In this document: in pieces, positions 6,653 through 60,379 of the stretch | Numbering within the stretch: the first letter of the stretch is position 1 | Layout of the letters: each line of letters starts with the position of its first letter | Assembly: GCA_019747905.1 (NCBI GenBank) | Contig: JAIEQG010000013.1 | Coordinates: 50,482-114,481 of the forward strand | Direction: 5' to 3' | DNA length: 64,000 nucleotides | Source of the DNA: Burkholderiales bacterium | GTDB taxonomy: Bacteria; Pseudomonadota; Gammaproteobacteria; Burkholderiales; Ga0077523 | The notes under the pieces: generated by a model | Told to the model about the DNA's origin: nothing | The model's database searches: none | What the model saw: the letters and a program-made list of their open reading frames with translations, nothing else | Translations under genes and position numbers: made by a program

Positions 6653-9600
6653 CTAGGCGTGCGTCGTCGCGGCGGCGAGTTCAGGACCTTCGTCCTGCCG
6701 CTTGTGGACCTTGCGCACCAGCACCGAGTAGATGGTGGGAATCACGAACAGCGTGAGCAGCGTTCCCAGCATCAGCCCGCCGACCACCACCCAGCCGATG
6801 GCCTGCCGCGACTCGGCACCGGCCCCGTGGGCCAGTGCCAACGGAACGGCACCCAGCACCATGGCGGCGGTCGTCATCAGGATCGGGCGCAACCGCAGCG
6901 TGGCGGCTTCCTTCACCGCCTCGACGCGATCCATGCCGCGCTCGCGCAACTGGTTGGCGAACTCGACGATGAGAATGCCGTGCTTGGTGATGAGGCCCAC
7001 CAGCATCACCAGGCCCACCTTGCTGTACACGTTGAGGGTGCCGCCGTTGCCAAGCTTGGTGTTGATGTACATCACCAGCAGCGCACCCGTCATGGCGAGC
7101 GGCACCGTGAACATGATGACCAGCGGACCGACGAAGCTCTCGAACTGCGCGGCGAGCACGAGGTAGATGACCAGCAGCGCCAAGCCGAAGGTGACGATGA
7201 GCTGCGCCCCCGACTCGCGGAACTCGCGCGAGATGTTGTCGAGGTCGGTGCGGGTCTCCGGTCCGAGTTCGGACTTCACCAGAGCGTCCATGTGATCGAG
7301 CACCTGGCCCAGCGTGTAACCGGGGGCCGGTTCACCGTTGATCACCGCTGCGCGCAGCTTGTTGAAGTGGTTGAGCTCCTTCGGACCGACCGACTCCGAG
7401 ATCGAGACGAGGTTCGACAACTGGTGCAGCGTGCCGTCGTTGCCGCGGACGTAGATGGACGTGAGGTCGCTCGGTTGCCGGCGCTTGTCGTCTTCCATCT
7501 GCACCACGACGTCGTACTGCTTGCCTTCGTGCTTGTAGCGAGTGACGTCGAAACCGCCCAGCAGCGTTTCCAGCGTGTGTCCGATGGTGCTCATCGACAC
7601 GCCGAGCGCCGAGGCCTTGTCGCGATCGATCTTCACCGAGAGCTGCGGCTTGTTGAGCTTGAGGTCCGTGTCGAGCGCGGTGATGCCCGGGTAATCGCGC
7701 AGCTTCGCCATCATCTTGTTGACCTTCACCTGCAGGTCTTCGTAGGTGTTGCCGTAGATGACGTACTCGACGCTCTTCGCGAACAGCGGCTGGCCGAGCG
7801 CGGGCAGCGCCTTGGTGAAGGACAGGGCGCCCGGCAGGCCGCCGAAGAGCTTCGGCCCCAGTTCCTTCGTGATCGCCTGCTGGCCGCGCTTGCGCTCGTG
7901 CCAGGGCTTCAGGACCGCGAAGGCCACGCCCAGGTTGACCGGGTTGGGCCGGTCCAGACCGGGGGCCACCACGGCAAACATCGTTTCGATCTCGGGTACG
8001 CCCTTGGTCATCTCCTCCACCGCGCGCATGTACCCATCGGTGTATTGCATGCTCGAGCCTTCCGGCGCGATCACGAAGGCGAGGAACATGCTCCGGTCTT
8101 CCTCGGGCGACAGTTCGTCCTTCAGCTGGCCGAGCAGCCAGACCATCGAGCCCAGCGTCGCGACCAGGACGATGGCGATGACCCAGCGGTGGCGCAGCGT
8201 CCAGCCGAGCATCGACCGGTAGACGTTCACCATGCCGGCGAAGAACGGCTCGGTCTTGTGATAGAGCCAACTGTGCTCGGCCCGCAGGAACTTCGAGCAC
8301 ATCATCGGCACCAGCGTCAGTGCGACGAAACCGGACACGATTACGGAGGTCGCCACGGTCAGCGCGAACTCCGTCATCAGCTTGCCGACGTTGCCTTCGG
8401 CGAAGGACAGCGGCGTGAACACGGCGGCGAGGGTGATGGTCATCGCGATGACCGCGAAGCCGATCTCCTTACTGCCGACCAGCGCCGCCTTGAAGGGCTT
8501 CATGCCCTCCTCGATGTGGCGGTGCACGTTCTCCAGCACGACGATGGCGTCGTCCACCACGAGACCGATCGAGAGCACCACGCCGAGCAGGGTCAGCGTG
8601 TTGATGGAGAACCCCAGCACCTTGAGGAACGTGAAGTGCCCGATGATGGACACGGGGATCGTCACGGCAGGGATGATCGTCGCGCGGAACTCGCGCAGGA
8701 AGAAGAAGATCACCAGCACCACGAGGGCCAGGGCGACGTAGATCGTTTCCATCACGGAATCGACCGAGGCCTGGATGAACTGCGAGGTGTCCACCGCAAC
8801 CCACATCTTCATGCCGGGCTGCAGCGAGGTTTCGAGGCGCGGCAGCAGTTCTTTCACTGCCTGGGCCACTTCCAGCGTGTTGGCCGTCGATTGCTTGACG
8901 ACACCCAGGCCAAGCGCCTCTTCGCCACGGACCCGCACGATCTTGCGGTTCTCGTACGGTCCCGGGGCTGCGCGGCCGACGTCGCGGAGGCGGATCGGAT
9001 ACCCGTTCACCTCCTTGATGATCATGTTGTTGAATTCTTCGGGCGACAGCAGATCGGTGCGCGCCTGGACGGTGAACTCGCGTTGCGTGCTCTCGATGCG
9101 ACCGCCGGGCGAATCGAGGTTCTGGCGCTTCAGCGCGTCCTCGACGTCCTGCGCGGTGAGGCCCTGGGCGGCGAGACGCTCGCGGTCGAGCCACACCCGC
9201 ATCGCATACTTGCGTTCCCCGCCGATGATGACCGAGGCCACCCCGGGAATCGCCTTGAGCGGGTCGGTGAGGTAGCGGTCGGCGAAGTCGGTCATCTCCA
9301 TCGGCGTGTGCTGGCCGCTGGTGAGTGCCACCCATACGATGGGCTGGGCGTCGGCTTCGATCTTCGACACCACCGGGTTGTCAGCGGCGGCCGGAATGTT
9401 CTTCCGCACGCGCGCGACCCGGTCGCGCACGTCGTTCGCGGCGCCGTCGATCTCGCGGCTGGTGACGAAGGTGACAGTGATCTGGCTCACCTCTTCACGG
9501 CTCTGCGACTTGATGGTCTTGATGCCCTCGATGCCCGACAGCGAATCTTCCAGCGGCTGGGTAATGGCACTTTCCATCACCTGCGCCGTCGCACCCTTGT

Positions 9601-9751
9601 AGACGGTGCGCACCGAGACCACCGGGGGGTCGATGTTCGGGTACTCGCGCACCGGCATTCGCGTGTACGACAGGAAGCCCATCAGGATGATGAGCAGGCT
9701 CATGACGGTGGCGAGCACCGGACGGCGGATGGAGACGTCGGAGAGCACCAT
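6653..9751 (-). CDS. RND efflux transporter permease (HAE1/AcrB-like)
   Basis: 1032 aa. Sequence MVLSDVSIRRPVLATVMSLLIILMGFLSYTRMPVREYPNIDPPVVSVRTVYKGA..., with a twelve-TM-type hydrophobic pattern. Confidence 0.95.
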   Translation of the reverse strand: MVLSDVSIRRPVLATVMSLLIILMGFLSYTRMPVREYPNIDPPVVSVRTVYKGATAQVMESAITQPLEDSLSGIEGIKTIKSQSREEVSQITVTFVTSREIDGAANDVRDRVARVRKNIPAAADNPVVSKIEADAQPIVWVALTSGQHTPMEMTDFADRYLTDPLKAIPGVASVIIGGERKYAMRVWLDRERLAAQGLTAQDVEDALKRQNLDSPGGRIESTQREFTVQARTDLLSPEEFNNMIIKEVNGYPIRLRDVGRAAPGPYENRKIVRVRGEEALGLGVVKQSTANTLEVAQAVKELLPRLETSLQPGMKMWVAVDTSQFIQASVDSVMETIYVALALVVLVIFFFLREFRATIIPAVTIPVSIIGHFTFLKVLGFSINTLTLLGVVLSIGLVVDDAIVVLENVHRHIEEGMKPFKAALVGSKEIGFAVIAMTITLAAVFTPLSFAEGNVGKLMTEFALTVATSVIVSGFVALTLVPMMCSKFLRAEHSWLYHKTEPFFAGMVNVYRSMLGWTLRHRWVIAIVLVATLGSMVWLLGQLKDELSPEEDRSMFLAFVIAPEGSSMQYTDGYMRAVEEMTKGVPEIETMFAVVAPGLDRPNPVNLGVAFAVLKPWHERKRGQQAITKELGPKLFGGLPGALSFTKALPALGQPLFAKSVEYVIYGNTYEDLQVKVNKMMAKLRDYPGITALDTDLKLNKPQLSVKIDRDKASALGVSMSTIGHTLETLLGGFDVTRYKHEGKQYDVVVQMEDDKRRQPSDLTSIYVRGNDGTLHQLSNLVSISESVGPKELNHFNKLRAAVINGEPAPGYTLGQVLDHMDALVKSELGPETRTDLDNISREFRESGAQLIVTFGLALLVIYLVLAAQFESFVGPLVIMFTVPLAMTGALLVMYINTKLGNGGTLNVYSKVGLVMLVGLITKHGILIVEFANQLRERGMDRVEAVKEAATLRLRPILMTTAAMVLGAVPLALAHGAGAESRQAIGWVVVGGLMLGTLLTLFVIPTIYSVLVRKVHKRQDEGPELAAATTHA

Positions 9752-9756
9752 GGCGA

Positions 9757-10929
9757 TCAGCCCCCCGTCTTCGTGCCGGCGGCGGGCGCGCCCGCGGTGG
9801 CCGGCGGAGCCGACGGCAGCACCATCACCGGTGCGCCGTCGCGCATCTTCATCTGGCCGTCGGTCATGACGATGTCGTGATCCTTCAGGCCTTCGAGCAC
9901 TTCGACCTCACCCGGACGCCGCACGCCTAGCACCACCTTGGTGAGCACGGCCTTGCCGTCCACGATCTTGTAGACGAACGAATCGCGGCCCTGCGGCCAG
10001 ATGGCCTCTTCCGGGATGATGATGGCGTTGGGGCGCGACTCGAGCAAGATGCTCACGCGGCCGAACATGCCCGGCTTCAGCTTGACCTGGCTGTTCGGGA
10101 CCTGGGCCCGCGCCAGCACGGTGCGGCTCTTTTCGTCGACGGTGGGTTCGATCGCGTAGATGCGGCCCACGAACACGTCGTTCGGGAAGGCATCGGTGCG
10201 GATGCTGACCGTGAGCCCGGGCTTCAATTTGGAGACGTAGACTTCCGGCACGCGAAAATCGAGCTTGAGCGAACTCACGTTCTCGAGGCGCACGATGTCG
10301 TCGCCGGCCTTCACGTACGCACCGGGGCTGATCAGTCGCAGGCCCACGATGCCGCTGAAGGGGGCCTCGACCGTGGATTTGGCGAGTGCCACTTCATCCT
10401 GCTGCTGCTTGGCGAGGGCAACATCCATGCTGCCCTTGGCGACGTCCACGGCATCCTGGCTCACGAACTTCTGCGCGAGCAGTTCCTTGGCGCGCTCGTA
10501 GCGCTGGCGCTCCTTGGTTGCGTCGGCGGTCGAACCGGCCAGCCTCGCCTGGTACTCGGACGGGTCGAGGGTTACCAGCTTGGCGCCCTTCTGGACCGCC
10601 TGACCTTCCTGGAAGTTGAGCGCCATGACGCGGCCCGGAATTTCCGAGCGGATCACCACGGACTCTGCGGGGAGCAGCGTGCCGACCGCGGTGATGTCGT
10701 TCTCGACCTTGCCTACGCGCACCGGCTCGGCCTTCACGGGGAGTCCCATGGGCTTGGCTGGGCCGCCGGCGGCCGGACCGCCTGGCTTCGGCGCATCGCC
10801 GGCCTTGGTCTCGGCCGGCTTTGCTGCTCCGGGCGAGGGCGGCTTCGATTCGGAGTTGCTCCCGCAGCCGACCATCATCAAAGCGGCCAGTGCGGCCGGC
10901 AGGAGTGAAACGGACAACGGACGGCGCAT
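9757..10929 (-). CDS. RND efflux periplasmic adaptor (membrane fusion protein), lipoprotein
   Basis: Start at ATG 10929. MRRPLSVSLLPAALAALMMVGCGS is a lipobox. The remainder has coiled-coil and beta-barrel MFP regions. There is a 5-nt gap to the RND permease. Confidence 0.9.
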   Translation of the reverse strand: MRRPLSVSLLPAALAALMMVGCGSNSESKPPSPGAAKPAETKAGDAPKPGGPAAGGPAKPMGLPVKAEPVRVGKVENDITAVGTLLPAESVVIRSEIPGRVMALNFQEGQAVQKGAKLVTLDPSEYQARLAGSTADATKERQRYERAKELLAQKFVSQDAVDVAKGSMDVALAKQQQDEVALAKSTVEAPFSGIVGLRLISPGAYVKAGDDIVRLENVSSLKLDFRVPEVYVSKLKPGLTVSIRTDAFPNDVFVGRIYAIEPTVDEKSRTVLARAQVPNSQVKLKPGMFGRVSILLESRPNAIIIPEEAIWPQGRDSFVYKIVDGKAVLTKVVLGVRRPGEVEVLEGLKDHDIVMTDGQMKMRDGAPVMVLPSAPPATAGAPAAGTKTGG

Positions 10930-12119: not shown

Positions 12120-12542
12120 TCAGGTCAGATTGCCGCGGCGTCCCGCGGGACAGGCCCGGCGCATGGCGATCATGGACTCGGCCTCGCGGTCGCGGCGCAT
12201 TTCCTCGCGGACCTGATCGATGTCGAGGTTCTGCGCGCGCCGCAGGAGTGCTTCCAACTGGGGCGCCGAGAACGCGGCCGGGCCGCAGTACAGCCCGACA
12301 CCCTTTCGGAACAGCACCAGTGCCGGTGCCGCCTCGATGCCGAACAGCCCGGCCAGCGCATTTGAATCCGTCCAGGGGACGCGCCGGAAGGCCACTTCGG
12401 GCATGCGCTGCATCACATCCTCGAAGGCCGCGCGGAAGCCCCGGCCTGCTTCACTGCCCTCGTCGTCGAACACGATCGCGAGGGTCGCGTGGGCCGCGAT
12501 CAGCGCGTCGAGAGTGTCCTGGTCGGGGAGCGTGGCGACCAT
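12120..12542 (-). CDS. thioredoxin-fold protein lacking the CxxC active site, with a basic C-terminal extension
   Basis: 140 aa. The pattern LAIVFDDEG...FRRVPWTDSNALAGLFGIEAAPALVLFRKGVGL looks like a Trx fold, but no CxxC is present. It starts 10 nt after the thioredoxin gene on the same strand. Confidence 0.7.
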   Translation of the reverse strand: MVATLPDQDTLDALIAAHATLAIVFDDEGSEAGRGFRAAFEDVMQRMPEVAFRRVPWTDSNALAGLFGIEAAPALVLFRKGVGLYCGPAAFSAPQLEALLRRAQNLDIDQVREEMRRDREAESMIAMRRACPAGRRGNLT

Positions 12543-12552
12543 AGGCAGGCCC

Positions 12553-12936
12553 TCAGGACTGGGCGGCGGGCTCTGCCGCGTCGCGGGCCGCGATTTCGCT
12601 GTGGACTTTTGCCATGTCGATCCCCTTCACCTCTTCGATCAGCTTTTCGAAGGCGCCGCCCATCATAGCGCCGGGCTGGGAGAAGAGGATGATCTGCTCG
12701 CGAAACACCATCAGGGTCGGAATCGCGCGGATGCTGAACTGCTGGGCGATCTCCGGCACGTCCTCGGTGTTGAGCTTGGCGAAGACGACGTCGGGATGCT
12801 GTTCCGACGTGGCCTCGAACACCGGGGCGAAGGCGCGACAGGGGCCGCACCACGGCGCCCAGAAATCGATGATCACGATGTCGTTGCCCTCGATCGTGGA
12901 CTCGAAGTTGTCCAGGGTCAGTTCGACGGTTGCCAT
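12553..12936 (-). CDS. thioredoxin (WCGPC active site)
   Basis: IVIIDFWAPWCGPCRAFAPVFE...IRAIPTLMVFRE. 127 aa with a short C-terminal tail. Confidence 0.9.
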   Translation of the reverse strand: MATVELTLDNFESTIEGNDIVIIDFWAPWCGPCRAFAPVFEATSEQHPDVVFAKLNTEDVPEIAQQFSIRAIPTLMVFREQIILFSQPGAMMGGAFEKLIEEVKGIDMAKVHSEIAARDAAEPAAQS

Positions 12937-13158
12937 GAAAAAACACTCCTGCAGGTAGGGGTGACGGGGCCGCTCGAATGCCGCGGATCGGTTGTCGCCA
13001 AGATAGGGGCGGCAGGGACGGAACGCAACCGCCCGCCACCCTGAAAATTCCTATGGCGCCGATAAGAACAATTCATCATCGGATGCGGGGGCAATCCCTA
13101 TACTCGAGGCGTGTGCGCACCTGGCGCAGATCCGATCAACCAGTACTGGAGCTCGAAC

Positions 13159-13632
13159 ATGAAACCGAACATCGGCCTGAGCGATGCCCAACGCAAGGGT
13201 GTCGTGGAGATCCTGAACCGCCTGCTCGCAGACGAGGTGGTGCTGTACATCAAGACCCGCAACTACCATTGGAATGTGGAAGGTCCCGACTTCAGCGAGA
13301 CACACAAGTTCTTCGAGGCGCAGTACGAAGAGCTCGACGAGATCATGGACGACGTCGCGGAGCGCGCGCGGGCCCTGGGCGGGCGCGCCGCAGGTTCGCT
13401 CGCGGCGTATCTCAAGCTCACCAAGCTGAAGGAAGACGACGGCAAGACCGTGGGGGAGAAAGCGATGATCAAGGACTTGCTGATCAGCCACGAAACCATC
13501 ATCCAGCGCCTGCGCAAGGAAGTGGAGATCGTCGGCGACAAGTTGGGCGATGTCGGCACCAACGACTTCATCACCGGCTTGATCGAGGCGCACGAGAAGA
13601 TGGCGTGGATGCTGCGCTCGTACTTGGCGTGA
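13159..13632 (+). CDS. dps: Dps family DNA-protection/ferroxidase protein
   Basis: ATG at 13159 with GGAG 7 nt upstream. Sequence MKPNIGLSDAQRKGVVEILNRLLADEVVLYIKTRNYHWNVEGPDFSETHKFFEAQYEELDEIMDDVAERARALGG. Confidence 0.9.
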   Translation: MKPNIGLSDAQRKGVVEILNRLLADEVVLYIKTRNYHWNVEGPDFSETHKFFEAQYEELDEIMDDVAERARALGGRAAGSLAAYLKLTKLKEDDGKTVGEKAMIKDLLISHETIIQRLRKEVEIVGDKLGDVGTNDFITGLIEAHEKMAWMLRSYLA

Positions 13633-13659
13633 GGTCGGTGGTGCCGACCCCACGCCAAG
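13623..13659 (+). terminator. long hairpin spanning the dps stop codon (no U-tract)
   Basis: CTTGGCGTG-a-GGTCGG-tggtg-CCGACC-c-CACGCCAAG gives 15 paired positions. The dps TGA lies at 13630-13632. Confidence 0.45.
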
Positions 13660-13691
13660 TGCAGTCCAATGGTGGCCCCCCACTTCCCCGT

Positions 13692-13714
13692 CCCTTCTCC
13701 CCGGGGGAGAAGGG
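13692..13714. repeat. GC hairpin related to the C5/G5 repeat units
   Basis: CCCTTCTCCCC-g-GGGGAGAAGGG is a perfect 11-bp dyad between dps and the response-regulator gene. Confidence 0.35.
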
Positions 13715-13742
13715 GGGATTCCACGAATGAATGGGGTAACCA

Positions 13743-15437
13743 ATGCCTGACGCGCGTCCCGTCATTCTCGCCGTCGACGACGAACCGGAGGTCTCGCGCG
13801 CCGTGGCGCGCGATCTGCGCGAAGCCTACGGCGAGCACTACCGGATCCTCCGTGCCGAGTCGCCGCTCACGGCCATGGAGACCCTGACCGAACTCCGGTT
13901 GCGCAGCGATACCGTCGCCTTGCTGTTGTCGGACCAGCGCATGCCCGAGATGAGCGGCGTCGAGTTTCTCGAGCAGGCCTCCAAGCTGTTCCCCACCGCC
14001 CGCCGGGTTCTGCTCACGGCGTACACCGATACCGAAGCAGCGATCCGCGCGATCAATCGCGTGCGCCTCGACTACTACCTGATGAAACCGTGGCATCCGC
14101 CGGAGCACAACCTCTATCCGGTGCTCGGCGACCTCCTGGAAGATTGGCGCTCCACGCAGAAGCCGCAGTTCCGCGGCGTGCAGCTCATCGATCATCGCTG
14201 GTCGCCGCTGGGCCACGAGCTGCGTGAATTTCTCTCGGGCAATCACGTGCCCTACCGGCGGCTCGATGTCGAGCATGATCCGGAAGCGCAGCGCATCATC
14301 GAACTGCTCACGCCCGAAGAGAAGACAGCGTGCAATGCCCCCAAACTGAAGGGCCTGCCGCTGGTGGTGCTGCCGGACGGCACGCGCCTGCAGCGGCCCA
14401 GCCCGACCGTGCTGGCAGAGCGTCTCGGAATCTCGACCCACAGCGCGACACAGGTGTACGACCTCGTGATCGTGGGCGGCGGACCGGCGGGCCTCGCGGC
14501 CGCGGTTTACGGTGCCTCCGAAGGGCTCAAGAGCGCGATCGTCGAGCGCGAAGCCCCGGGCGGCCAGGCCGGCACCAGTTCCCGCATCGAGAACTACCTC
14601 GGTTTCCCTTCGGGCTTGAGCGGCGCCGACCTGTCGCGCCGCGCCGTTGCGCAGGCGCGGCGTTTCGGTGCCGATCTGATTCTCACGCAGGCTGTCACGG
14701 GTTTGCGCGTGCAGGCGCCCTACAAGTTCGTGCAGTTGTCGGATGGCTCCGAAGTCGGCTGCCGCGCGCTGGTGATCGCGAGCGGCGTGCAGTACCGCAA
14801 GTTGCCGGCACCCGGCCTCGAGGAACTGGCCGGCGTCGGTGTGTTCTATGGGGCTGCGACCACCGAGACCGCCGTCTGCCAGGGCCAGGACGTGGTGATC
14901 GTCGGCGGCGGCAATTCGGCAGGGCAGGGCGCGATCTTCCTGGCGGACTACGCGCGGAGCGTCACCATCATCGTGCGCGGCGAAGGGCTCGCGGCGACGA
15001 TGTCGCGTTATCTCATCGACCGCATCGAAGGGACCGCCAACATCACGGTGTTGCCTTTCACGCAGGTGGCGCGAGTGAGTGGCACCGATCACCTGGAAAC
15101 CGTGACACTCGGCAACGTGCGCACCGGCGAAGAGGAAACCCGCGACGTCGCGGCGCTGTTCATCTTCATCGGTGCCGAGCCGCGCACCGATTGGCTGGGC
15201 GATTCCGCGCTGCGCGACGATCATGGCTTCATCCTGACCGGCCGTGACCTGCTGGTCGACGGCAAATGGCCCCCGGTGTGGACCCTCGAGCGCGACCCGT
15301 TCCTGCTAGAGACCTGCATCCCCGGCGTGTTCGCGGCCGGCGACGTGCGCCACGGTTCGATGAAACGGGTCGCCGCAGCCGTGGGCGAAGGGTCCATGGC
15401 CGTGTCGTTCGTCCACCAGTTTCTCGCCGACCTGTGA
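13743..15437 (+). CDS. fused response regulator / thioredoxin-reductase-like FAD oxidoreductase (no CxxC redox motif)
   Basis: The N-terminal REC domain reads VILAVDDEPEV...LLLSDQRMPEMSGVEFL...YLMKPW. A roughly 110-aa linker domain follows, then YDLVIVGGGPAGLAAAVYGASEGL and VVIVGGGNSAGQGAIFLA dinucleotide-binding motifs. Where TrxR has CATC, this sequence reads YGAATTETAVCQG. Confidence 0.9.
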   Translation: MPDARPVILAVDDEPEVSRAVARDLREAYGEHYRILRAESPLTAMETLTELRLRSDTVALLLSDQRMPEMSGVEFLEQASKLFPTARRVLLTAYTDTEAAIRAINRVRLDYYLMKPWHPPEHNLYPVLGDLLEDWRSTQKPQFRGVQLIDHRWSPLGHELREFLSGNHVPYRRLDVEHDPEAQRIIELLTPEEKTACNAPKLKGLPLVVLPDGTRLQRPSPTVLAERLGISTHSATQVYDLVIVGGGPAGLAAAVYGASEGLKSAIVEREAPGGQAGTSSRIENYLGFPSGLSGADLSRRAVAQARRFGADLILTQAVTGLRVQAPYKFVQLSDGSEVGCRALVIASGVQYRKLPAPGLEELAGVGVFYGAATTETAVCQGQDVVIVGGGNSAGQGAIFLADYARSVTIIVRGEGLAATMSRYLIDRIEGTANITVLPFTQVARVSGTDHLETVTLGNVRTGEEETRDVAALFIFIGAEPRTDWLGDSALRDDHGFILTGRDLLVDGKWPPVWTLERDPFLLETCIPGVFAAGDVRHGSMKRVAAAVGEGSMAVSFVHQFLADL

Positions 15438-16822
15438 TCGGGCTCGAACTCCTCCGCGCCATGCCGTTGTTCAGCGGCCTGTCGGACGAACGTCTCGATT
15501 GGGTCTGCCACCGGCTCACCGACTTCGAACTTGCGCCCGGTGAGGCACTGATCCACGAAGGCGACGAGGGCGCGAGCTTCGTGGTCCTGATCGAAGGCTC
15601 GTTGCTCATTACCAAGCGCTCCAACAGCGTCGAACTGCCGGCCGGTCGCCAGGATGCACCGGCCTTCATGGGCGAGATTCCGCTGCTCTCCGGTACGCCG
15701 GCCCAGGTCACGGTGCGCTCCGCCGGGCACAGCCGCCTGCTGCGCCTGGACGAGGATACCTTTCGCGAACTGATCGCGACCGACGTCACCTTCAGCCGCA
15801 CCATCTTCCAGACGCTCTCGAGGCGCGTTTCGGGCCTCGAATCCTTCGTGCGCCAGCGCGAGAAGCTGGCCTCCCTCGGAACGCTGACTGCCGGCCTCGC
15901 CCACGAGCTCAACAACCCCGCGGCGGCCGTGGCACGTTCCACCGACCGCATGCGGGCGATCGCGCGCGATCTCGATTCCATCACGTGCGAACTGCACGAC
16001 TCCGATCTTCCGCAGGAGGCGATGTACGCTCTGAAGGCGCTGAGCGACACGGCCATCAGCGGGCCCGTGCCGGCGCGCACCCCGATCGAAGAGAGCGATC
16101 GCGAAGAAGCCTTCGGCGAGTGGCTGGACGGCCGCAAGGTGCACGATGCATGGAAGATCGCTGCCGTGTTCGCTGCATCGAAGCTCGAGTTGCCGGCCGT
16201 GCAATCACTGCTCGGCAGCGCGGGCGATGCCGTCTCGCCGGCGGCCCGCTGGCTCGCGGCCACCGTCGAACTCGCGGCGCTGGTCGACGAAGCCAACCAC
16301 GGTGCCTCGCGCATCGCCGATCTGGTGAAGGCGATGAAGTCCTATTCGTACATGGACCAGGCGCCGAAGCAGGAGGTGGACATTCACGAAGGCATCGAAG
16401 CCACGCTCACCATCATGCGCCACAAGCTGAAGCACGGCGTCGAAGTGGTGCGCGAATACGATCGGTCGTTGCCGAAACTGTCGGTGTACGGCTCGGAGCT
16501 CAATCAGGTGTGGACCAACCTGATCGACAACGCGTTGGACGCGATGGACTGCAAGGGCACACTTACTATCCGCACGCGGCGCGACGGCGGCGCCGCCGTC
16601 GTCGAAGTGGGTGATTCAGGTCCCGGCATCCCGCCGGACGTGCAGACGCGGCTGTTCGAACCGTTCTTCACCACGAAGCCCGTCGGCAAGGGCACCGGTC
16701 TCGGGCTCGATATCACCTGGCGTATCGTCGTGAATCGCCACGGCGGTACCATCAAGGTCCATTCGAAGCCGGGCGACACGAAATTCCTGGTGGTGCTGCC
16801 GATCGATTCCGAGGTTCACTGA
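15434..16822 (+). CDS. cyclic-nucleotide-binding-domain sensor histidine kinase
   Basis: The GTG at 15434 overlaps the upstream stop (GTGA). The cNMP-binding-like N-terminus reads LRAMPLFSGLSDERLDWV...GEALIHEGDEGASFVVLIEGSL...FMGEIPLL. The HisKA H-box is LAHELNNPAAA. The HATPase motifs are NLIDNALDAM, DSGPGIP and GTGLGL. Confidence 0.9.
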   Translation: MIGLELLRAMPLFSGLSDERLDWVCHRLTDFELAPGEALIHEGDEGASFVVLIEGSLLITKRSNSVELPAGRQDAPAFMGEIPLLSGTPAQVTVRSAGHSRLLRLDEDTFRELIATDVTFSRTIFQTLSRRVSGLESFVRQREKLASLGTLTAGLAHELNNPAAAVARSTDRMRAIARDLDSITCELHDSDLPQEAMYALKALSDTAISGPVPARTPIEESDREEAFGEWLDGRKVHDAWKIAAVFAASKLELPAVQSLLGSAGDAVSPAARWLAATVELAALVDEANHGASRIADLVKAMKSYSYMDQAPKQEVDIHEGIEATLTIMRHKLKHGVEVVREYDRSLPKLSVYGSELNQVWTNLIDNALDAMDCKGTLTIRTRRDGGAAVVEVGDSGPGIPPDVQTRLFEPFFTTKPVGKGTGLGLDITWRIVVNRHGGTIKVHSKPGDTKFLVVLPIDSEVH

Positions 16823-16837
16823 CCCCCGAGGTACGCG

Positions 16838-17095
16838 ATGACCTGCACCCATCTCGACACCATTCAGGAAGTCACCCCGAGCGGCCGCGGCTGCAAGGAG
16901 TGCCTGGAGACGGGCGACACCTGGGTGCACCTGCGCCTGTGCCTCACCTGCGGCCACGTCGGATGCTGCGATTCGTCGAAGAACCGGCATGCGACGAAGC
17001 ACTTCCATGTGACGCAGCACCCGATCGTGCGGTCATTCGAACCCGGGGAAGACTGGGCTTGGTGCTTTGTCGACAGCGAATTCCTCGAAGTCTGA
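16838..17095 (+). CDS. UBP-type zinc-finger domain protein (stand-alone zf-UBP)
   Basis: 85 aa: CTHLDTI...GCKECLETGDTWVHLRLCLTCGHVGCCDSSKNRHATKHFHVTQHPIVRS. The Cys/His pattern matches zf-UBP. It starts 15 nt after the kinase stop. Confidence 0.85.
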   Translation: MTCTHLDTIQEVTPSGRGCKECLETGDTWVHLRLCLTCGHVGCCDSSKNRHATKHFHVTQHPIVRSFEPGEDWAWCFVDSEFLEV

Positions 17096-17168
17096 CCTCG
17101 AGCTTGCGGGCAGAGCCCGACGATCATATGCATTGCGCGGTAGGAACAACCTTGGTGTGGAGGCAAGG

Positions 17169-19199
17169 ATGACGAAGAAAAGCCCTGTCGGGACGAACAG
17201 ATGTTCGAACCTACTCAGGCGCGCGCTGGTTCACCATCTCGCCGCCGGATGCTCCTTCATGGCAGCGGCGTTCCCGGTGACAGCGATGGACGCAAGGGAC
17301 TTCGGTGCCGTTCGTTCACCTTTCCTCCCGCGGTTGGTCGCAGACGACGACCCTGAACTTTGTTCGATTGTATTGGCGTTGGCGCGGCGTACCTTTCTCT
17401 CCGGAGACTCTGACATGTGGGTCAATCGAGTCGATGGGAACGGTATTCGATGGGTCCCGTGGGAGGATCAGACGGCCTCTGAGGACTCGGCGCGCGGTCC
17501 CATACGTTCGATCGAACTTGATCTTGACGGCACCGGAACCAAACAGACTCTCGCCCTGCGCCACTACTTTCACACGTGGCGAGGTGAGAACTATTACGCC
17601 TTTGTCTTTCCGTCAAAGGGCAGTCTTGAATCGGTGATCAAGGATCCAAAGGCGGATTCCGACAATGGGGATACCGCAGAATCTCGATTGCCCGCCGATC
17701 CGGGGAGTCTGGATCCGGGTATTCGCTACTACCCGGATGGAGAGACGACGACTGGCGAAGCGGCAGAGGGAAGTGAATGGGAGGACCACCAACTCTTCGA
17801 GTTTCGGGGGCGCTACTACTTCTACGGATATCAGCATTGGCTGCACGGTCCACTGCAGAGGAGCCTTCCTGTCTATCGCCTGCAGGGGAACGGTCGATTG
17901 AAACCCGCTTGCAGGGTACAGATGTGGCCCATGGAGGACCGGGTCGCCGCCGCTGATTCCGTCGAGGGTGTTGCTGGTTACTTTGGAGTGCTTCGCCGCA
18001 TCGGTACTGGAGGTGTCGGCGACTGCGGAACGATGCATGCCAACGATATTCACGATTGGGGCGCCGAATTTGCGATGATGAATGCCATCATCCGCCCGTG
18101 GACCCTGTCCGAGCGGCGTCGCGAGGGCTCTGCGAAGTTGGAGCGAACGTTGATGGCGGATTGGAGTTTCGCTGGTGTCTGGAACCGCCGCGAGTATCAG
18201 ACCCTGCTGGAACATGAACCCTCGGCTTTGCAAGGCCTCGAGCGGCACTTCCAGAAGGCATTCGGGCTAAAGACAGACAACGCGCGGCGACAGGCGAAAC
18301 TCGCACTTGATCAGATAGTCGCAGCCTGGATCATGGTACCTGGCAGCTATGGAGACTTCCAAACGGTTGATCCGTTCCGGCAACGGATCATTCAAGGGAC
18401 CCTTACGAAAAGCGACATAGTCGAGTCGGGCAGTCCGAAGGAAGAAGGACGCGATGATCAATTGATTTTTCCCGTGTCGCCCTACCTCCACGACGCCGTG
18501 GAGTCCTCAAGTATTGCAAAGAGCTTGCTCGACGCCGGCTTCAGAGTTGATGCCAGGAACGACTTTGGCAAGACAGCCTTGATGATGGCTGCGCACATGA
18601 ATCGACCGGACGTGGTGGCACTGCTGCTTCGGCGCAAGGCCGCTGTTGATGCAAGGACCAAGGAGGTGAATCAGTGCGGCATGCAGATAAACCGAAGCGG
18701 TCGAACTGCGTTGATGTACGCAGCCGAGAATGCTGGCATCGAAGTGCTTCGATTGCTGGTCGAAGCGGGTGCGGACAGGAAGGCGGTGGACAGCCGCGGC
18801 GATGGCGTCGCTTACTATCTTGCCAAGAATCCCTACCTGACCGACGCGCAGAAACAGATGGATGTGGGCGCTCTCGTCAATAGCGTGCGACCGGTCCAGG
18901 GACCGAGCTTCAAATGCGGACCTGCATTGAGCGCCATAGATCGCCTGGTGTGCTCGGATGGCGTGCTTGCAATGCAAGATCGGTATCTCGCCGATGCCTA
19001 CGCCCGGTGGCTATCCCGCAAGGGCGAAGAAGCACGCAGGGACCAACGCACATGGCTCGCGCGCAGAAACAAGACCTGCGGCGCATTGACGAAGGACGAA
19101 AGTTTATCGTGCCTGCAGCAGTCCACACGTACGCGAATCCGCTACCTCCAGAATCGCTTGGCTGAGCAGGGAACAGACGCAGCCGGCGCGCGCCGCTGA
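17169..19199 (+). CDS. exported protein: unknown ~440-aa N-terminal domain + ankyrin repeats + DUF1311/LprI-like C-terminal domain
   Basis: ATG at 17169 with GGAGG upstream. The hydrophobic leader is HHLAAGCSFMAAAFPVTAMDA. Ankyrin repeats include GKTALMMAAHMNRPDVVALLLRRKAAVDA and GRTALMYAAENAGIEVLRLLVEAGADR. The C-terminus reads FKCGPALSAIDRLVCSDGVLAMQDRYLADAYARWL...QRTWLARRNKTCG...LSCLQQSTRTRIRYLQNRL. GC content is visibly lower than the flanks. Confidence 0.8.
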   Translation: MTKKSPVGTNRCSNLLRRALVHHLAAGCSFMAAAFPVTAMDARDFGAVRSPFLPRLVADDDPELCSIVLALARRTFLSGDSDMWVNRVDGNGIRWVPWEDQTASEDSARGPIRSIELDLDGTGTKQTLALRHYFHTWRGENYYAFVFPSKGSLESVIKDPKADSDNGDTAESRLPADPGSLDPGIRYYPDGETTTGEAAEGSEWEDHQLFEFRGRYYFYGYQHWLHGPLQRSLPVYRLQGNGRLKPACRVQMWPMEDRVAAADSVEGVAGYFGVLRRIGTGGVGDCGTMHANDIHDWGAEFAMMNAIIRPWTLSERRREGSAKLERTLMADWSFAGVWNRREYQTLLEHEPSALQGLERHFQKAFGLKTDNARRQAKLALDQIVAAWIMVPGSYGDFQTVDPFRQRIIQGTLTKSDIVESGSPKEEGRDDQLIFPVSPYLHDAVESSSIAKSLLDAGFRVDARNDFGKTALMMAAHMNRPDVVALLLRRKAAVDARTKEVNQCGMQINRSGRTALMYAAENAGIEVLRLLVEAGADRKAVDSRGDGVAYYLAKNPYLTDAQKQMDVGALVNSVRPVQGPSFKCGPALSAIDRLVCSDGVLAMQDRYLADAYARWLSRKGEEARRDQRTWLARRNKTCGALTKDESLSCLQQSTRTRIRYLQNRLAEQGTDAAGARR

Positions 19200-58296: not shown

Positions 58297-60379
58297 GGGA
58301 CCCGCCGCCGATTTCGGGAATGACGACGGTGAACTTGGAGCCCTCGCGCGGCGCGCTGCTCACCGCGATGCGGCCACCGTGCAGTTCCACCGATTTGCGC
58401 ACGATCGCGAGTCCGAGCCCGGCGCCGGCAATGTGGTTGACGTTGCGCCCGCGATGGAAGGTCTCGAAGAGCCGCGCCTGGTCCTCGATCGGAATGCCGA
58501 TGCCGCGATCCTCCACTTCGAGCAGGATCTCGCGGCCGTCGCAGACCACCCGCACGTCGACGGTCGACTCGGTGGGCGAATACTTGATGGCGTTGGTGAG
58601 CAGATTGCCGAGAATGTGCCGGAGCAGTTCTTCATCGACGACGTGCTCGGCACCCACGTTCTCGAACCGCAGGAGCACTTGCTGCTCGGCGTGAGCTGCG
58701 GCTCGCGTTTCATCGACGATGCGCTGGCACAGCGCTCGCAGATCGAGCCGTCGTGGACGAAACTCCAGCCGCCCGGCTTCGGAGCGACCGATCAGGAGAA
58801 TGTCCTCGAGCATGCGGGTCATGCGTTGGACCGCACCCTTGATGCCACCGATGAGATCGGCCCGCTCGCGTTCCGTGAGGCGTTCGCCGTAGTCGGCCAG
58901 CAGTTCGGTCGACGACAGGATGGTCGCGAGCGGGGTGCGGAACTCATGCGAGGTCATCGACACGAAACGCGACTTGAGCTCGTTCAACTCCTTCTCGCGC
59001 GCCAGCGCATCCACCAGTTCCGCCTCCGCGGCCTTGCGCCGCGACAGATCCACCACGGTCCAGATGGTCCCCACGTTGAGGTCGCGCCGATCGATCGCGC
59101 AGCCGCTCACCAGGCACCAGAACGTGGATCCATCCTTGCGCCGCACCCGGCCTTCGGTGGTGAACAAGCCCTTGTCCACGAGCTGGCGGTTGATGACCGG
59201 GCCGAGTTCGTCGTAAGCCTCCGGGGAGCCATAGGTGTGGCGCACGGACTGGCCCACCAGCTCCCCTGCCCGATAGCCCAGCATGTCGCACTCGAAGTGC
59301 TGGTTGACCCAGACGTACTCCCGATTGCGCACCAGGGCGATCCCGATCACCGACGACTGCAGGATGGCCTCGCGCTCCGACAGCGTGCGGCGCAGATCCT
59401 CTTCGAGCTTGCGGCGGGAGGTGATGTCCATCAGCACCCAGATGCTGCCCAAGGCCGGATCGTCGGACTGGATCGCCCGGCCGCTGATCAGGCACCAGAA
59501 CAGGGAGCCGTCGCTCCGCTTCATGCGTGCGCGTGTCTCGTAGATGCGGCCCTGCGCGAGCAGCGGATAGGCTTCGGCGCCGAGGCGCTCGTAGTCCTCG
59601 CGCGACGGATAGAGCATCGCGGTGTTCTTGCCGGTCAGCGAACCCCGGGGGTAGCCGAAGAGGTGCTCCTCCAGCATGCGGTTGCACCACTCCAGGCGGC
59701 GGTTGCGCAGCAGGCCGATGCCGACCACGGAGTGCTCCAGGATGGCGGTCTTCTCGGCGAGTGCCACCTGAAGGCGTTCCTCGCTGTGCCGCAGCGCATC
59801 GTCGGCCGCCGTCAACTCGGCGAGCTTCTGCGTGAGCTCGGCGGTGCGCTCCGCGATGCGTTGCTCGAGGTCGCGGTTGAGTGCCTCGATCTCGGCCTTG
59901 CTGCGTCGGCTTTCGCTGATGTCCGAAAAGGTCACGACCGCGAACTTGCGGCCGTCGGCCCGCGTGATCGGTCGGAAGCTCACCAGCGAATCGAAGACGC
60001 TGCCGTCGCTGCGGCGAATACCCCATTCGAGCGGAATCTTCGGCGAATCCGCGAACAGGGCCGCGAGGAACTTCTCCTTCACCGCCACGACGCTGGGCGG
60101 GGCGCTCATCGAATAGTGCTGGCCGATGAGGTCTTCCGGTCGATGCCGGACCAGTTCGCAGAAGAACGGGTTGACGCGCACGAACCGGCCCTGCTCGTCG
60201 ATCACGCAGATGCCGATTCGAGCGACGTCGAACACGGTCGCGTACAAATCGAGATCGAGTTGATCGAGGTCCACGGCGGGCTGCGGGCGCTGGTGACGGC
60301 TGTCCGGTCGGCGAGGAGCCGCATTATCCTCCCGTCGCGCCGGGCCCGCGGCCGATCGATGCGGGCCGCCGGCGCCCAC
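58289..60379 (-). CDS. cytoplasmic multi-PAS sensor histidine kinase (start uncertain)
   Basis: There are three PAS-like segments and a coiled-coil linker. The H-box is SRFVSMTSHEFRTPL. The HATPase motifs are LLTNAIKYS, DRGIGIP and GAGLGLAI. No TM segments were seen. The candidate GTG at 60379 has GGAG 7 nt upstream. The track start at 60550 would overlap the divergent hydrolase gene. Confidence 0.85.
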   Translation of the reverse strand: MGAGGPHRSAAGPARREDNAAPRRPDSRHQRPQPAVDLDQLDLDLYATVFDVARIGICVIDEQGRFVRVNPFFCELVRHRPEDLIGQHYSMSAPPSVVAVKEKFLAALFADSPKIPLEWGIRRSDGSVFDSLVSFRPITRADGRKFAVVTFSDISESRRSKAEIEALNRDLEQRIAERTAELTQKLAELTAADDALRHSEERLQVALAEKTAILEHSVVGIGLLRNRRLEWCNRMLEEHLFGYPRGSLTGKNTAMLYPSREDYERLGAEAYPLLAQGRIYETRARMKRSDGSLFWCLISGRAIQSDDPALGSIWVLMDITSRRKLEEDLRRTLSEREAILQSSVIGIALVRNREYVWVNQHFECDMLGYRAGELVGQSVRHTYGSPEAYDELGPVINRQLVDKGLFTTEGRVRRKDGSTFWCLVSGCAIDRRDLNVGTIWTVVDLSRRKAAEAELVDALAREKELNELKSRFVSMTSHEFRTPLATILSSTELLADYGERLTERERADLIGGIKGAVQRMTRMLEDILLIGRSEAGRLEFRPRRLDLRALCQRIVDETRAAAHAEQQVLLRFENVGAEHVVDEELLRHILGNLLTNAIKYSPTESTVDVRVVCDGREILLEVEDRGIGIPIEDQARLFETFHRGRNVNHIAGAGLGLAIVRKSVELHGGRIAVSSAPREGSKFTVVIPEIGGGSRA

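Follow-up and report, generated by a model that had tools for sequence, protein, structure and literature searches.

A 64,000-nucleotide stretch of a Burkholderiales bacterium genome (contig JAIEQG010000013.1, positions 50,482 to 114,481; hereafter the window) carries two overlapping genes, a response regulator and a sensor histidine kinase, which would together form a cytoplasmic two-component system that acts through an enzyme-type regulator and not through a transcription factor. The kinase is predicted to be a soluble, dimeric HisKA-type enzyme with a cyclic-nucleotide-binding (CNB) fold as its sensor. The regulator joins a receiver domain (REC) to a glutaredoxin-like (Grx-like) and a thioredoxin-reductase-like (TrxR-like) flavoprotein domain. 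We propose that the two genes, probably with a small zf-UBP zinc-finger gene behind them, make up one operon (13743-15437, 15434-16822 and 16838-17095; Table 1). The likeliest input in this lineage would be a small ligand other than cAMP or cGMP, or no free ligand; the kinase would phosphorylate Asp64 of the adjacent receiver, and this would switch the activity or the assembly of a flavoprotein whose Grx-like part has no cysteine and whose TrxR-like part has no CxxC. Taken as a whole, this is our best explanation of the locus, a non-disulfide flavoprotein output included, and we hold it to be reasonably probable.

The genes keep each other's company over large evolutionary distances. A scan of one genome per species turned up at least 595 kinase relatives; 80 of their loci were examined. 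In 46 of the 80, the gene directly before the kinase, on the same strand, encodes the REC-Grx-like-TrxR-like protein; 14 further loci have this regulator gene within 7 kb (eight upstream, three divergent, three downstream), and in six the contig is too short to judge. The loci span ten or more phyla, in lineages that include Pseudomonadota, Cyanobacteriota, Chloroflexota, Verrucomicrobiota, Acidobacteriota, Actinomycetota, Nitrospirota, Binatia and Deinococcota. Among the 46 adjacent pairs, 24 offer the kinase an in-frame start codon that shares 4 nt or 1 nt with the end of the regulator gene, and in Streptomyces fungicidicus and Deinococcus aetherius RefSeq annotates the 4-nt form. Fusions are found in both gene orders, as REC-Grx-TrxR-CNB (P0281) and HATPase-REC-Grx (P0344). 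The survey of co-occurrence, which the original prediction had put forward as a check, therefore speaks for partnership: given adjacency across many phyla, overlaps and fusions, kinase and REC-flavoprotein are very probably a cognate pair, and the same three lines of evidence point to the adjacent Asp64 as the likely phosphorylation site. Within the window there is no second receiver similar to that of the regulator; one other kinase-like ATPase match lies 41 kb away (58316-58624, minus strand, 41% identity over 104 aa).

In the window itself, the GTG start of the kinase overlaps the stop of the regulator in the tetranucleotide GTGA, as had been noted before, and the overlap is kept in the closest relative (locus L081), where the gene caller picked an ATG. 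The window kinase also has an in-frame ATG, at 15461. It is the less likely start, because homologues conserve residues that precede it (L7 and R8 in the consensus MxxxxxLRxxPLF), because several close homologues are called at 462 aa, and because of the overlap retained in L081; we thus prefer the GTG. Neither candidate start is preceded by a Shine-Dalgarno sequence, which is compatible with re-initiation at the overlap without proving it. Stoichiometric co-expression, suggested earlier from the overlap, does not follow from four nucleotides alone. In 12900-17400 neither a sigma-70-like promoter nor an Rfam element was found, nor any convincing terminator, and an exact look-up of the regulator protein returned zero identical records.

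The N-terminus of the kinase has the cyclic-nucleotide-binding-like β-barrel that was anticipated for it. Pfam cNMP_binding (PF00027) matches residues 32-117 with an E-value of 1.2e-13 (51.3 bits, for a gathering threshold of 27.5), and the top sequence matches among solved structures are RI-alpha regulatory subunits of protein kinase A (PKA), with an E-value of 7.5e-20. In the AlphaFold2 model the strands fall within residues 29-105 and helices at 81-86 and 107-116 (pLDDT about 80-93), which gives both the barrel and the cassette helix of the fold. It is also the sole recognisable sensor, as claimed: Pfam detects no other sensor domain in the kinase.

The phosphate-binding cassette tells a different story from the fold. 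With canonical CNB domains (PKA R subunit, CRP, Epac, HCN/CNG, SthK/MloK1) the window sensor shares fold, Pfam family and cassette length, and its cassette likewise starts with Gly-Glu and has Pro-x-x-x-Thr in its second half. It differs in having alanine for the phosphate arginine, which is absent in about 93% of its relatives, and in passing its output to a histidine kinase through a continuous helix. When SFGELALIYGTPRAATVKA of PKA RI-alpha is aligned to FMGEIPLLSGTPAQVTVRS of the kinase (residues 78-96), Gly-Glu is retained and R209 becomes Ala90, followed by Gln. R209 of PKA RI-alpha neutralises and hydrogen-bonds the cyclic phosphate (PMC10959531); the equivalent arginine of CRP is R82. 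Since this arginine is lost, sensing of cAMP or cGMP is unlikely here, and we infer that the ligand in this lineage is neither of the two. The cyclic-nucleotide input named in the original prediction is not supported by the inspection of cassette residues proposed there.

Cassette columns were counted in 110 full-length homologues and in 189 sequences, a broader set into which the 80 genome loci were taken. Among the 110, the commonest three residues at column 90 are V, A and Y, arginine not being one of them. In the 189, arginine occurs 13 times and lysine once, and 175 have neither, so that 176 are without arginine; the ribose-contacting pair is much better kept, G80 in 184 and E81 in 164. 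The 13 arginine-bearing relatives are 12 Chloroflexota and one Rubrobacter (L037, L042, L045-L048, L050-L052, L057, L070, L071, L076). Their cassettes are canonical, GEM[AS]LL..PR[TFMS]A[ST]V (for instance IGEMSLLESAPRFATVRA, with its PR[TS]A[ST] half), and most of them adjoin the same type of regulator gene. All other lineages examined are without the arginine. The degenerate majority, the window kinase included, comprises Pseudomonadota, Cyanobacteriota, Verrucomicrobiota, Acidobacteriota and most Actinomycetota, and the copies of Streptomyces and Deinococcus diverge even further. By their cassettes, then, a single orthologous family holds both canonical and degenerate sensors.

These counts bear on the reading in which the sensor does bind cAMP or cGMP, and the pair couples the level of a second messenger to phosphorylation of a redox flavoenzyme. 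The above-threshold Pfam match, PKA subunits as best solved relatives and the retention of Gly80-Glu81, Pro89 and Thr93 all agree with it, as do the fully canonical Chloroflexota and Rubrobacter cassettes beside, mostly, the same regulator gene; the latter make cyclic-nucleotide sensing plausible for part of the family, perhaps for its ancestor, and Chloroflexota orthologues may still be capable of it. For the window kinase we nonetheless judge it improbable, in view of Ala90 and the Gln after it and of the 175 relatives with neither arginine nor lysine. In PKA, the backbone amide of the residue that follows the cassette arginine contacts the phosphate, and at this next position 76 of the 189 relatives have proline. 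Furthermore, the cyclic-nucleotide response of trypanosomatid PKAR came from restoring the cassette arginine (PMC10959531).

A second possibility, unlikely on its own though clearly less so, is that the fold was re-tuned to another small molecule: a nucleoside, a redox-related metabolite or a cofactor. There are precedents in CRP/FNR-family sensors and in the CNB domains of trypanosomatid PKA, which lack the arginine and bind purine nucleosides with nanomolar affinity (PMC10959531). The regulatory subunit of the latter resembles our sensor in keeping Gly-Glu within a CNB fold while arginine and the alanine after it are replaced (PMC10959531). Residues near the pocket are strongly conserved in the kinase family (W23, E42-G43, G55, F78, G80-E81, L85, T93, R95), and this conservation despite the loss of arginine argues for a retained binding function. 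Many relatives also carry His73, Cys100 and Cys117, and thioredoxin and Dps genes lie close by, syntenic in the nearest relative. Against this possibility, the window kinase has Gln, Ser and Asp in place of these three residues, and the thioredoxin/Dps neighbourhood is not kept in the 80 distant loci. Binding of nucleosides in kinetoplastids needs a glutamate at the position of PKA A202 (E311 and E435 in TbPKAR; PMC10959531). The window kinase has Pro83 there, in place of the E311 of the ribose cassette, and the column reads P in 77, S in 18 and Q in 11 of the 110 homologues. The trypanosomatid solution therefore does not apply to it, and its likeness to that subunit does not imply nucleoside binding.

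Downstream of the sensor, the kinase core appears complete. Pfam HATPase_c matches residues 355-457 (E 1.4e-23), and the residues N362, N366, D394, G396, G398, F411, F412, G420, G422 and G424 of the ATPase domain are invariant. The phospho-acceptor His157 (codon 15902-15904) sits in the H-box GLAHELNNP and is invariant in the 189 sequences. As His157 and the residues of the N, G1, F and G2 boxes are all invariant, the core should be catalytically active. Foldseek likens it to the cores of HK853, ZraS and CckA. The protein is soluble, as the original prediction held: it has no transmembrane segment, the top Kyte-Doolittle mean over 19 residues being 1.36.

The "long helical region" of the earlier description is in fact a split DHp domain with an unrecognised module inserted in it. 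The AlphaFold2 model, a monomer computed from 32 homologues (mean pLDDT 85.9), shows a β-barrel (1-117), a helix (118-189), four short helices (194-260), a long helix (264-306) and the ATPase domain (313-456). The two helices of the DHp hairpin, 118-189 and 264-306, are hence not contiguous, being parted by 74 residues. This insert explains why Pfam HisKA gives only a weak match below threshold, over profile positions 2-21 (E 0.0021). With NCBIfam kinase models the match falls into two separate stretches, and the NCBI name "ATP-binding protein", together with the missing Pfam HisKA call, follows from the split DHp domain. Compared with HisKA kinases of the NtrB/AtoS/ZraS/CckA group, the window kinase shares the H-box GLAHELNNP and a complete N/G1/F/G2 ATPase domain, and it differs in that the hairpin loop is swapped for a conserved four-helix module of about 75 residues. 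On the sensor side, a single continuous helix leads from the barrel to His157, so that a conformational change of the sensor would be transmitted directly to autophosphorylation, if the model is right.

Elsewhere in the family the kinase occurs in duplicate. Scytonema (L018) has tandem CNB-kinase genes at 7001-8356 and 8404-9861, and in five metagenomic proteins (P0016, P0035, P0036, P0041, P0058) the ATPase domain is followed by an entire second CNB-kinase. These arrangements suggest tandem duplication or fusion.

The four-helix insert (residues 190-263) may be an undescribed domain. It carries the conserved motif DPLxxSDRExELxDWLxxxGVxxxWxLAP, with E224, W230 and W240 conserved, and it is modelled with a pLDDT of about 88-96 within the full kinase. 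Modelled alone it gives a four-helix unit again (pLDDT 87). It has no match in Pfam, no sequence match in the PDB and no fold match in the PDB (best E 2.9). In complexes of the HK853-RR468 type, receivers dock on a surface next to the tip of the DHp hairpin. The insert, placed at this very tip, could speculatively offer an extra surface for docking, specificity or insulation towards the large regulator or the zf-UBP protein.

The regulator combines an intact receiver with two domains that have lost their dithiols. Pfam finds Response_reg (PF00072, residues 8-120, E 2.1e-13) and Pyr_redox_2 (E 1.1e-36), and no family in the 106 residues between the receiver and the flavoprotein domain. Over 121 aligned sequences, the receiver consensus VDDDPeV / DQRMP / LLTAY / KPW reaches a conservation of at least 90%. 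In this respect the protein is like other response regulators with enzymatic output (CheB, PleD/WspR, RpfG), which also fuse a receiver with intact acceptor residues to an enzyme-type domain. For the middle domain, a family profile matches mycoredoxin-1 Rv3198.1 of M. tuberculosis (PDB 2LQO, E 2e-9), a sequence similarity within the thioredoxin fold. The active site WCGYC is aligned to RWSPxxH (RWSPLGH in the window), in which W26 and S27 (alignment numbering) never vary and neither CxxC nor CxxS is present, there being no cysteine. The same profile matches 3384 clusters in a library at 50% identity.

Over its whole length, the C-terminal part of 330 residues aligns with thioredoxin reductases of solved structure (E 1.8e-49). 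The motifs for FAD and NAD(P)H (GGGPAG, GGGNSAG, GDVR) are intact. In contrast, the redox-active CxxC is replaced, YGAATTETAVC standing in the regulator where solved enzymes have YCAAC-DGYLF (family consensus YYGAAxTEAxxC), and the HRRxxxR motif for the 2'-phosphate of NADPH is degenerate (VRGEGLA). The only commonly conserved cysteines of the domain are C379 (116 of 120 sequences; Val in Deinococcus) and C340 (99 of 120). Accordingly, the score with TIGR01292 (thioredoxin-disulfide reductase) is 228.9 bits, below the cut-off of 343.45.

The regulator thus shares with low-molecular-weight TrxR, AhpF and NTRC the two-domain FAD/NAD(P)H fold (identity within its own family is 48-65%), and with AhpF and NTRC the fusion of a thioredoxin-fold domain to TrxR. 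It departs from them in lacking both dithiols (GAATTE for CAxC, WSP for WCGYC), in its degenerate HRRxxxR and in an insert of about 19 residues before the final GD motif. A disulfide reductase as the output, implied by the label "TrxR-like", is at odds with these data: judged by its motifs, the regulator cannot perform classical disulfide reductase chemistry. Probable alternatives are a flavoenzyme that depends on NAD(P)H and has a different acceptor, or a regulatory protein that binds flavin. Homologues go by the names "FAD-dependent oxidoreductase" or "thioredoxin reductase (NADPH)"; with both dithiol motifs missing, the second name is very likely wrong.

We also looked for direct CNB-Grx-TrxR fusions, in which sensor and enzyme would be linked with no need for phosphotransfer, by searching 1.84 billion representatives with the middle-domain profile and scanning matches of odd length. 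None without a receiver was found in the scanned matches, the remaining top 150 being mostly fragments and left unscanned; the sole co-occurrence with CNB was a read-through fusion of both genes.

A zf-UBP gene follows the kinase stop by 15 nt and is a probable third member of the operon here. Related arrangements recur: zf-UBP is fused to the C-terminus of the kinase in P0089 and P0119 (CNB-kinase-zfUBP), it lies directly downstream in L003, L009, L038 and L081 and 0.8 kb downstream in L078, and in Streptomyces the zf-UBP and kinase genes share 4 nt. In the Chloroflexi locus L075 it is fused to a Kef-type Na+/H+ exchanger (8377-10716) that overlaps the kinase gene. With a presence in only about 7 of the 80 loci, it must be accessory and not a core member. 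One of the copies lies at 5416-5769 of L083.

Both the zf-UBP protein and the insert are relevant to a third view of the input. CNB-homology domains of KCNH channels are not known to bind a free ligand. The sensor of the kinase might similarly serve as a module for dimerisation or partner binding, the signal entering through the DHp insert, zf-UBP or the redox state of the flavoprotein. The insert equals the catalytic core in conservation and is without a known relative, and zf-UBP is repeatedly adjacent or fused, with the zf-UBP-Kef exchanger of L075 beside a kinase. We nevertheless consider this view unlikely, more so than a re-tuned sensor: zf-UBP is too rare among the loci to be a general input, and conservation of the Gly80-Glu81 pocket is hard to explain without a ligand.

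Several points weigh against the explanation that we favour, namely phosphorylation of a non-disulfide flavoprotein by its cognate kinase in response to an input other than a cyclic nucleotide. The regulator gene is missing within 7 kb, despite room for it, in 14 of the 80 loci, mostly cyanobacterial and with unrelated neighbours, so that pairing is not obligatory or else these kinases use distant partners. Loss of the cassette arginine is a strong but indirect argument, as a non-canonical mode of cyclic-nucleotide binding is possible. The flavoprotein could be a catalytically dead scaffold. Any role of the insert is speculative, being deduced solely from its position in a monomer model, and we found in the literature no biochemical work on any member of the family.

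A genuine thioredoxin gene, a gene for a 140-aa protein and a Dps gene, all on the regulator side, are syntenic with the pair in L081 and not in the 80 distant loci. We therefore set aside an oxidative-stress regulon as a clue at the level of the family; the LysR-type neighbour, moreover, is PunR/AllS-like and not OxyR. Between the Dps-like gene and the regulator lie 110 nt (13633-13742) with a strong inverted repeat rich in G+C, CCCTTCTCCCCGGGGGAGAAGGGG (about 13693-13716), which has no Rfam match and no T-run and may be a terminator of dps or an operator. On the other side, an open reading frame with ankyrin repeats and an LprI domain looks like a recent insertion, given its low third-position GC and its absence from the otherwise syntenic L081. 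The start listed for it falls inside the zf-UBP gene and probably lies too far upstream.

Table 1. Features of the kinase-regulator locus, in window coordinates
Feature	Positions	Strand	Basis
Regulator gene, 564 aa: REC, glutaredoxin-like and thioredoxin-reductase-like flavoprotein domains	13743-15437	+	Open reading frame, Pfam
REC receiver domain, aa 1-130	13743-14132	+	Pfam Response_reg; acceptor set D12, D13, D64, T92, K115 intact
Glutaredoxin/mycoredoxin-like thioredoxin-fold domain, aa 131-236	14133-14450	+	Family profile match to PDB 2LQO
TrxR-like FAD/NAD(P)H domain without redox-active CxxC, aa 237-564	14451-15434	+	Alignment to solved TrxRs
GTGA, kinase GTG start and regulator TGA stop	15434-15437	+	Read directly from the sequence
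Kinase gene, soluble sensor histidine kinase, 462 aa from GTG	15434-16822	+	Open reading frame, Pfam, AlphaFold2, Foldseek
CNB-fold sensor domain, aa 1-117	15434-15784	+	Pfam PF00027, PKA R-subunit matches, predicted β-barrel
Degenerate phosphate-binding cassette FMGEIPLLSGTPAQVTVRS, aa 78-96, Gly80-Glu81 kept, Ala90 for Arg	15665-15721	+	Alignment to PKA RI-alpha
Continuous helix linking sensor to DHp helix 1, aa 118-189	15785-16000	+	AlphaFold2 model, HisKA profile positions 2-21
Four-helix insert at DHp hairpin tip, aa 190-263	16001-16222	+	AlphaFold2 model, conserved motif
DHp helix 2, aa 264-306	16223-16351	+	AlphaFold2 model; second NCBIfam kinase-model stretch from about aa 279
Catalytic ATP-binding domain with N, G1, F and G2 boxes, aa 313-457	16370-16804	+	HATPase_c, invariant residues
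Small zf-UBP zinc-finger protein, 85 aa, 15 nt past the kinase stop, GAGG ribosome-binding site	16838-17095	+	Pfam zf-UBP, E 5e-15
Ankyrin-repeat and LprI-domain open reading frame, 710 aa	17067-19199	+	Third-position GC 0.65, about 0.84 in neighbours
Thioredoxin	12553-12936	-	NCBIfam TIGR01068, above cut-off
140-aa protein after thioredoxin, weak thioredoxin-like match, no NCBIfam match	12120-12542	-	Profile search

To our knowledge, the two-component systems studied so far nearly all have a DNA-binding or a cyclic-di-GMP output. The literature that we searched contains no study of a receiver that switches a flavoenzyme, and full-text searches for functional work on the kinase, on the REC-TrxR-like regulator or on bacterial zf-UBP partners came back empty. 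The fusion of a receiver to thioredoxin reductase is listed as an architecture in Galperin's census, as "Mycobacterium-like" (PMC5847659), with no reported function; the window regulator differs from that entry in having no CxxC, and adds a cysteine-less glutaredoxin-like domain and a kinase with a CNB-fold sensor. The module is thus known as an architecture and not as a functioning system. In the same literature, the mixture of canonical and degenerate cassettes, the double loss of dithiols, the DHp insert and the link to zf-UBP seem to be undescribed.

More broadly, and only as a tentative proposal, in at least about 600 species of ten or more phyla a CNB-kinase would control a non-disulfide flavoprotein by phosphorylation, its sensor having switched from a canonical to a new ligand and its insert being a new domain that docks the regulator or zf-UBP. 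As to database names, the label "thioredoxin reductase (NADPH)" of the regulator very likely needs correction, and the generic "ATP-binding protein" of the kinase is explained by its split DHp domain. Finally, orthologues with canonical and with degenerate cassettes beside the same regulator gene offer a natural comparison, which makes the question of what arginine-less bacterial CNB domains bind directly testable.

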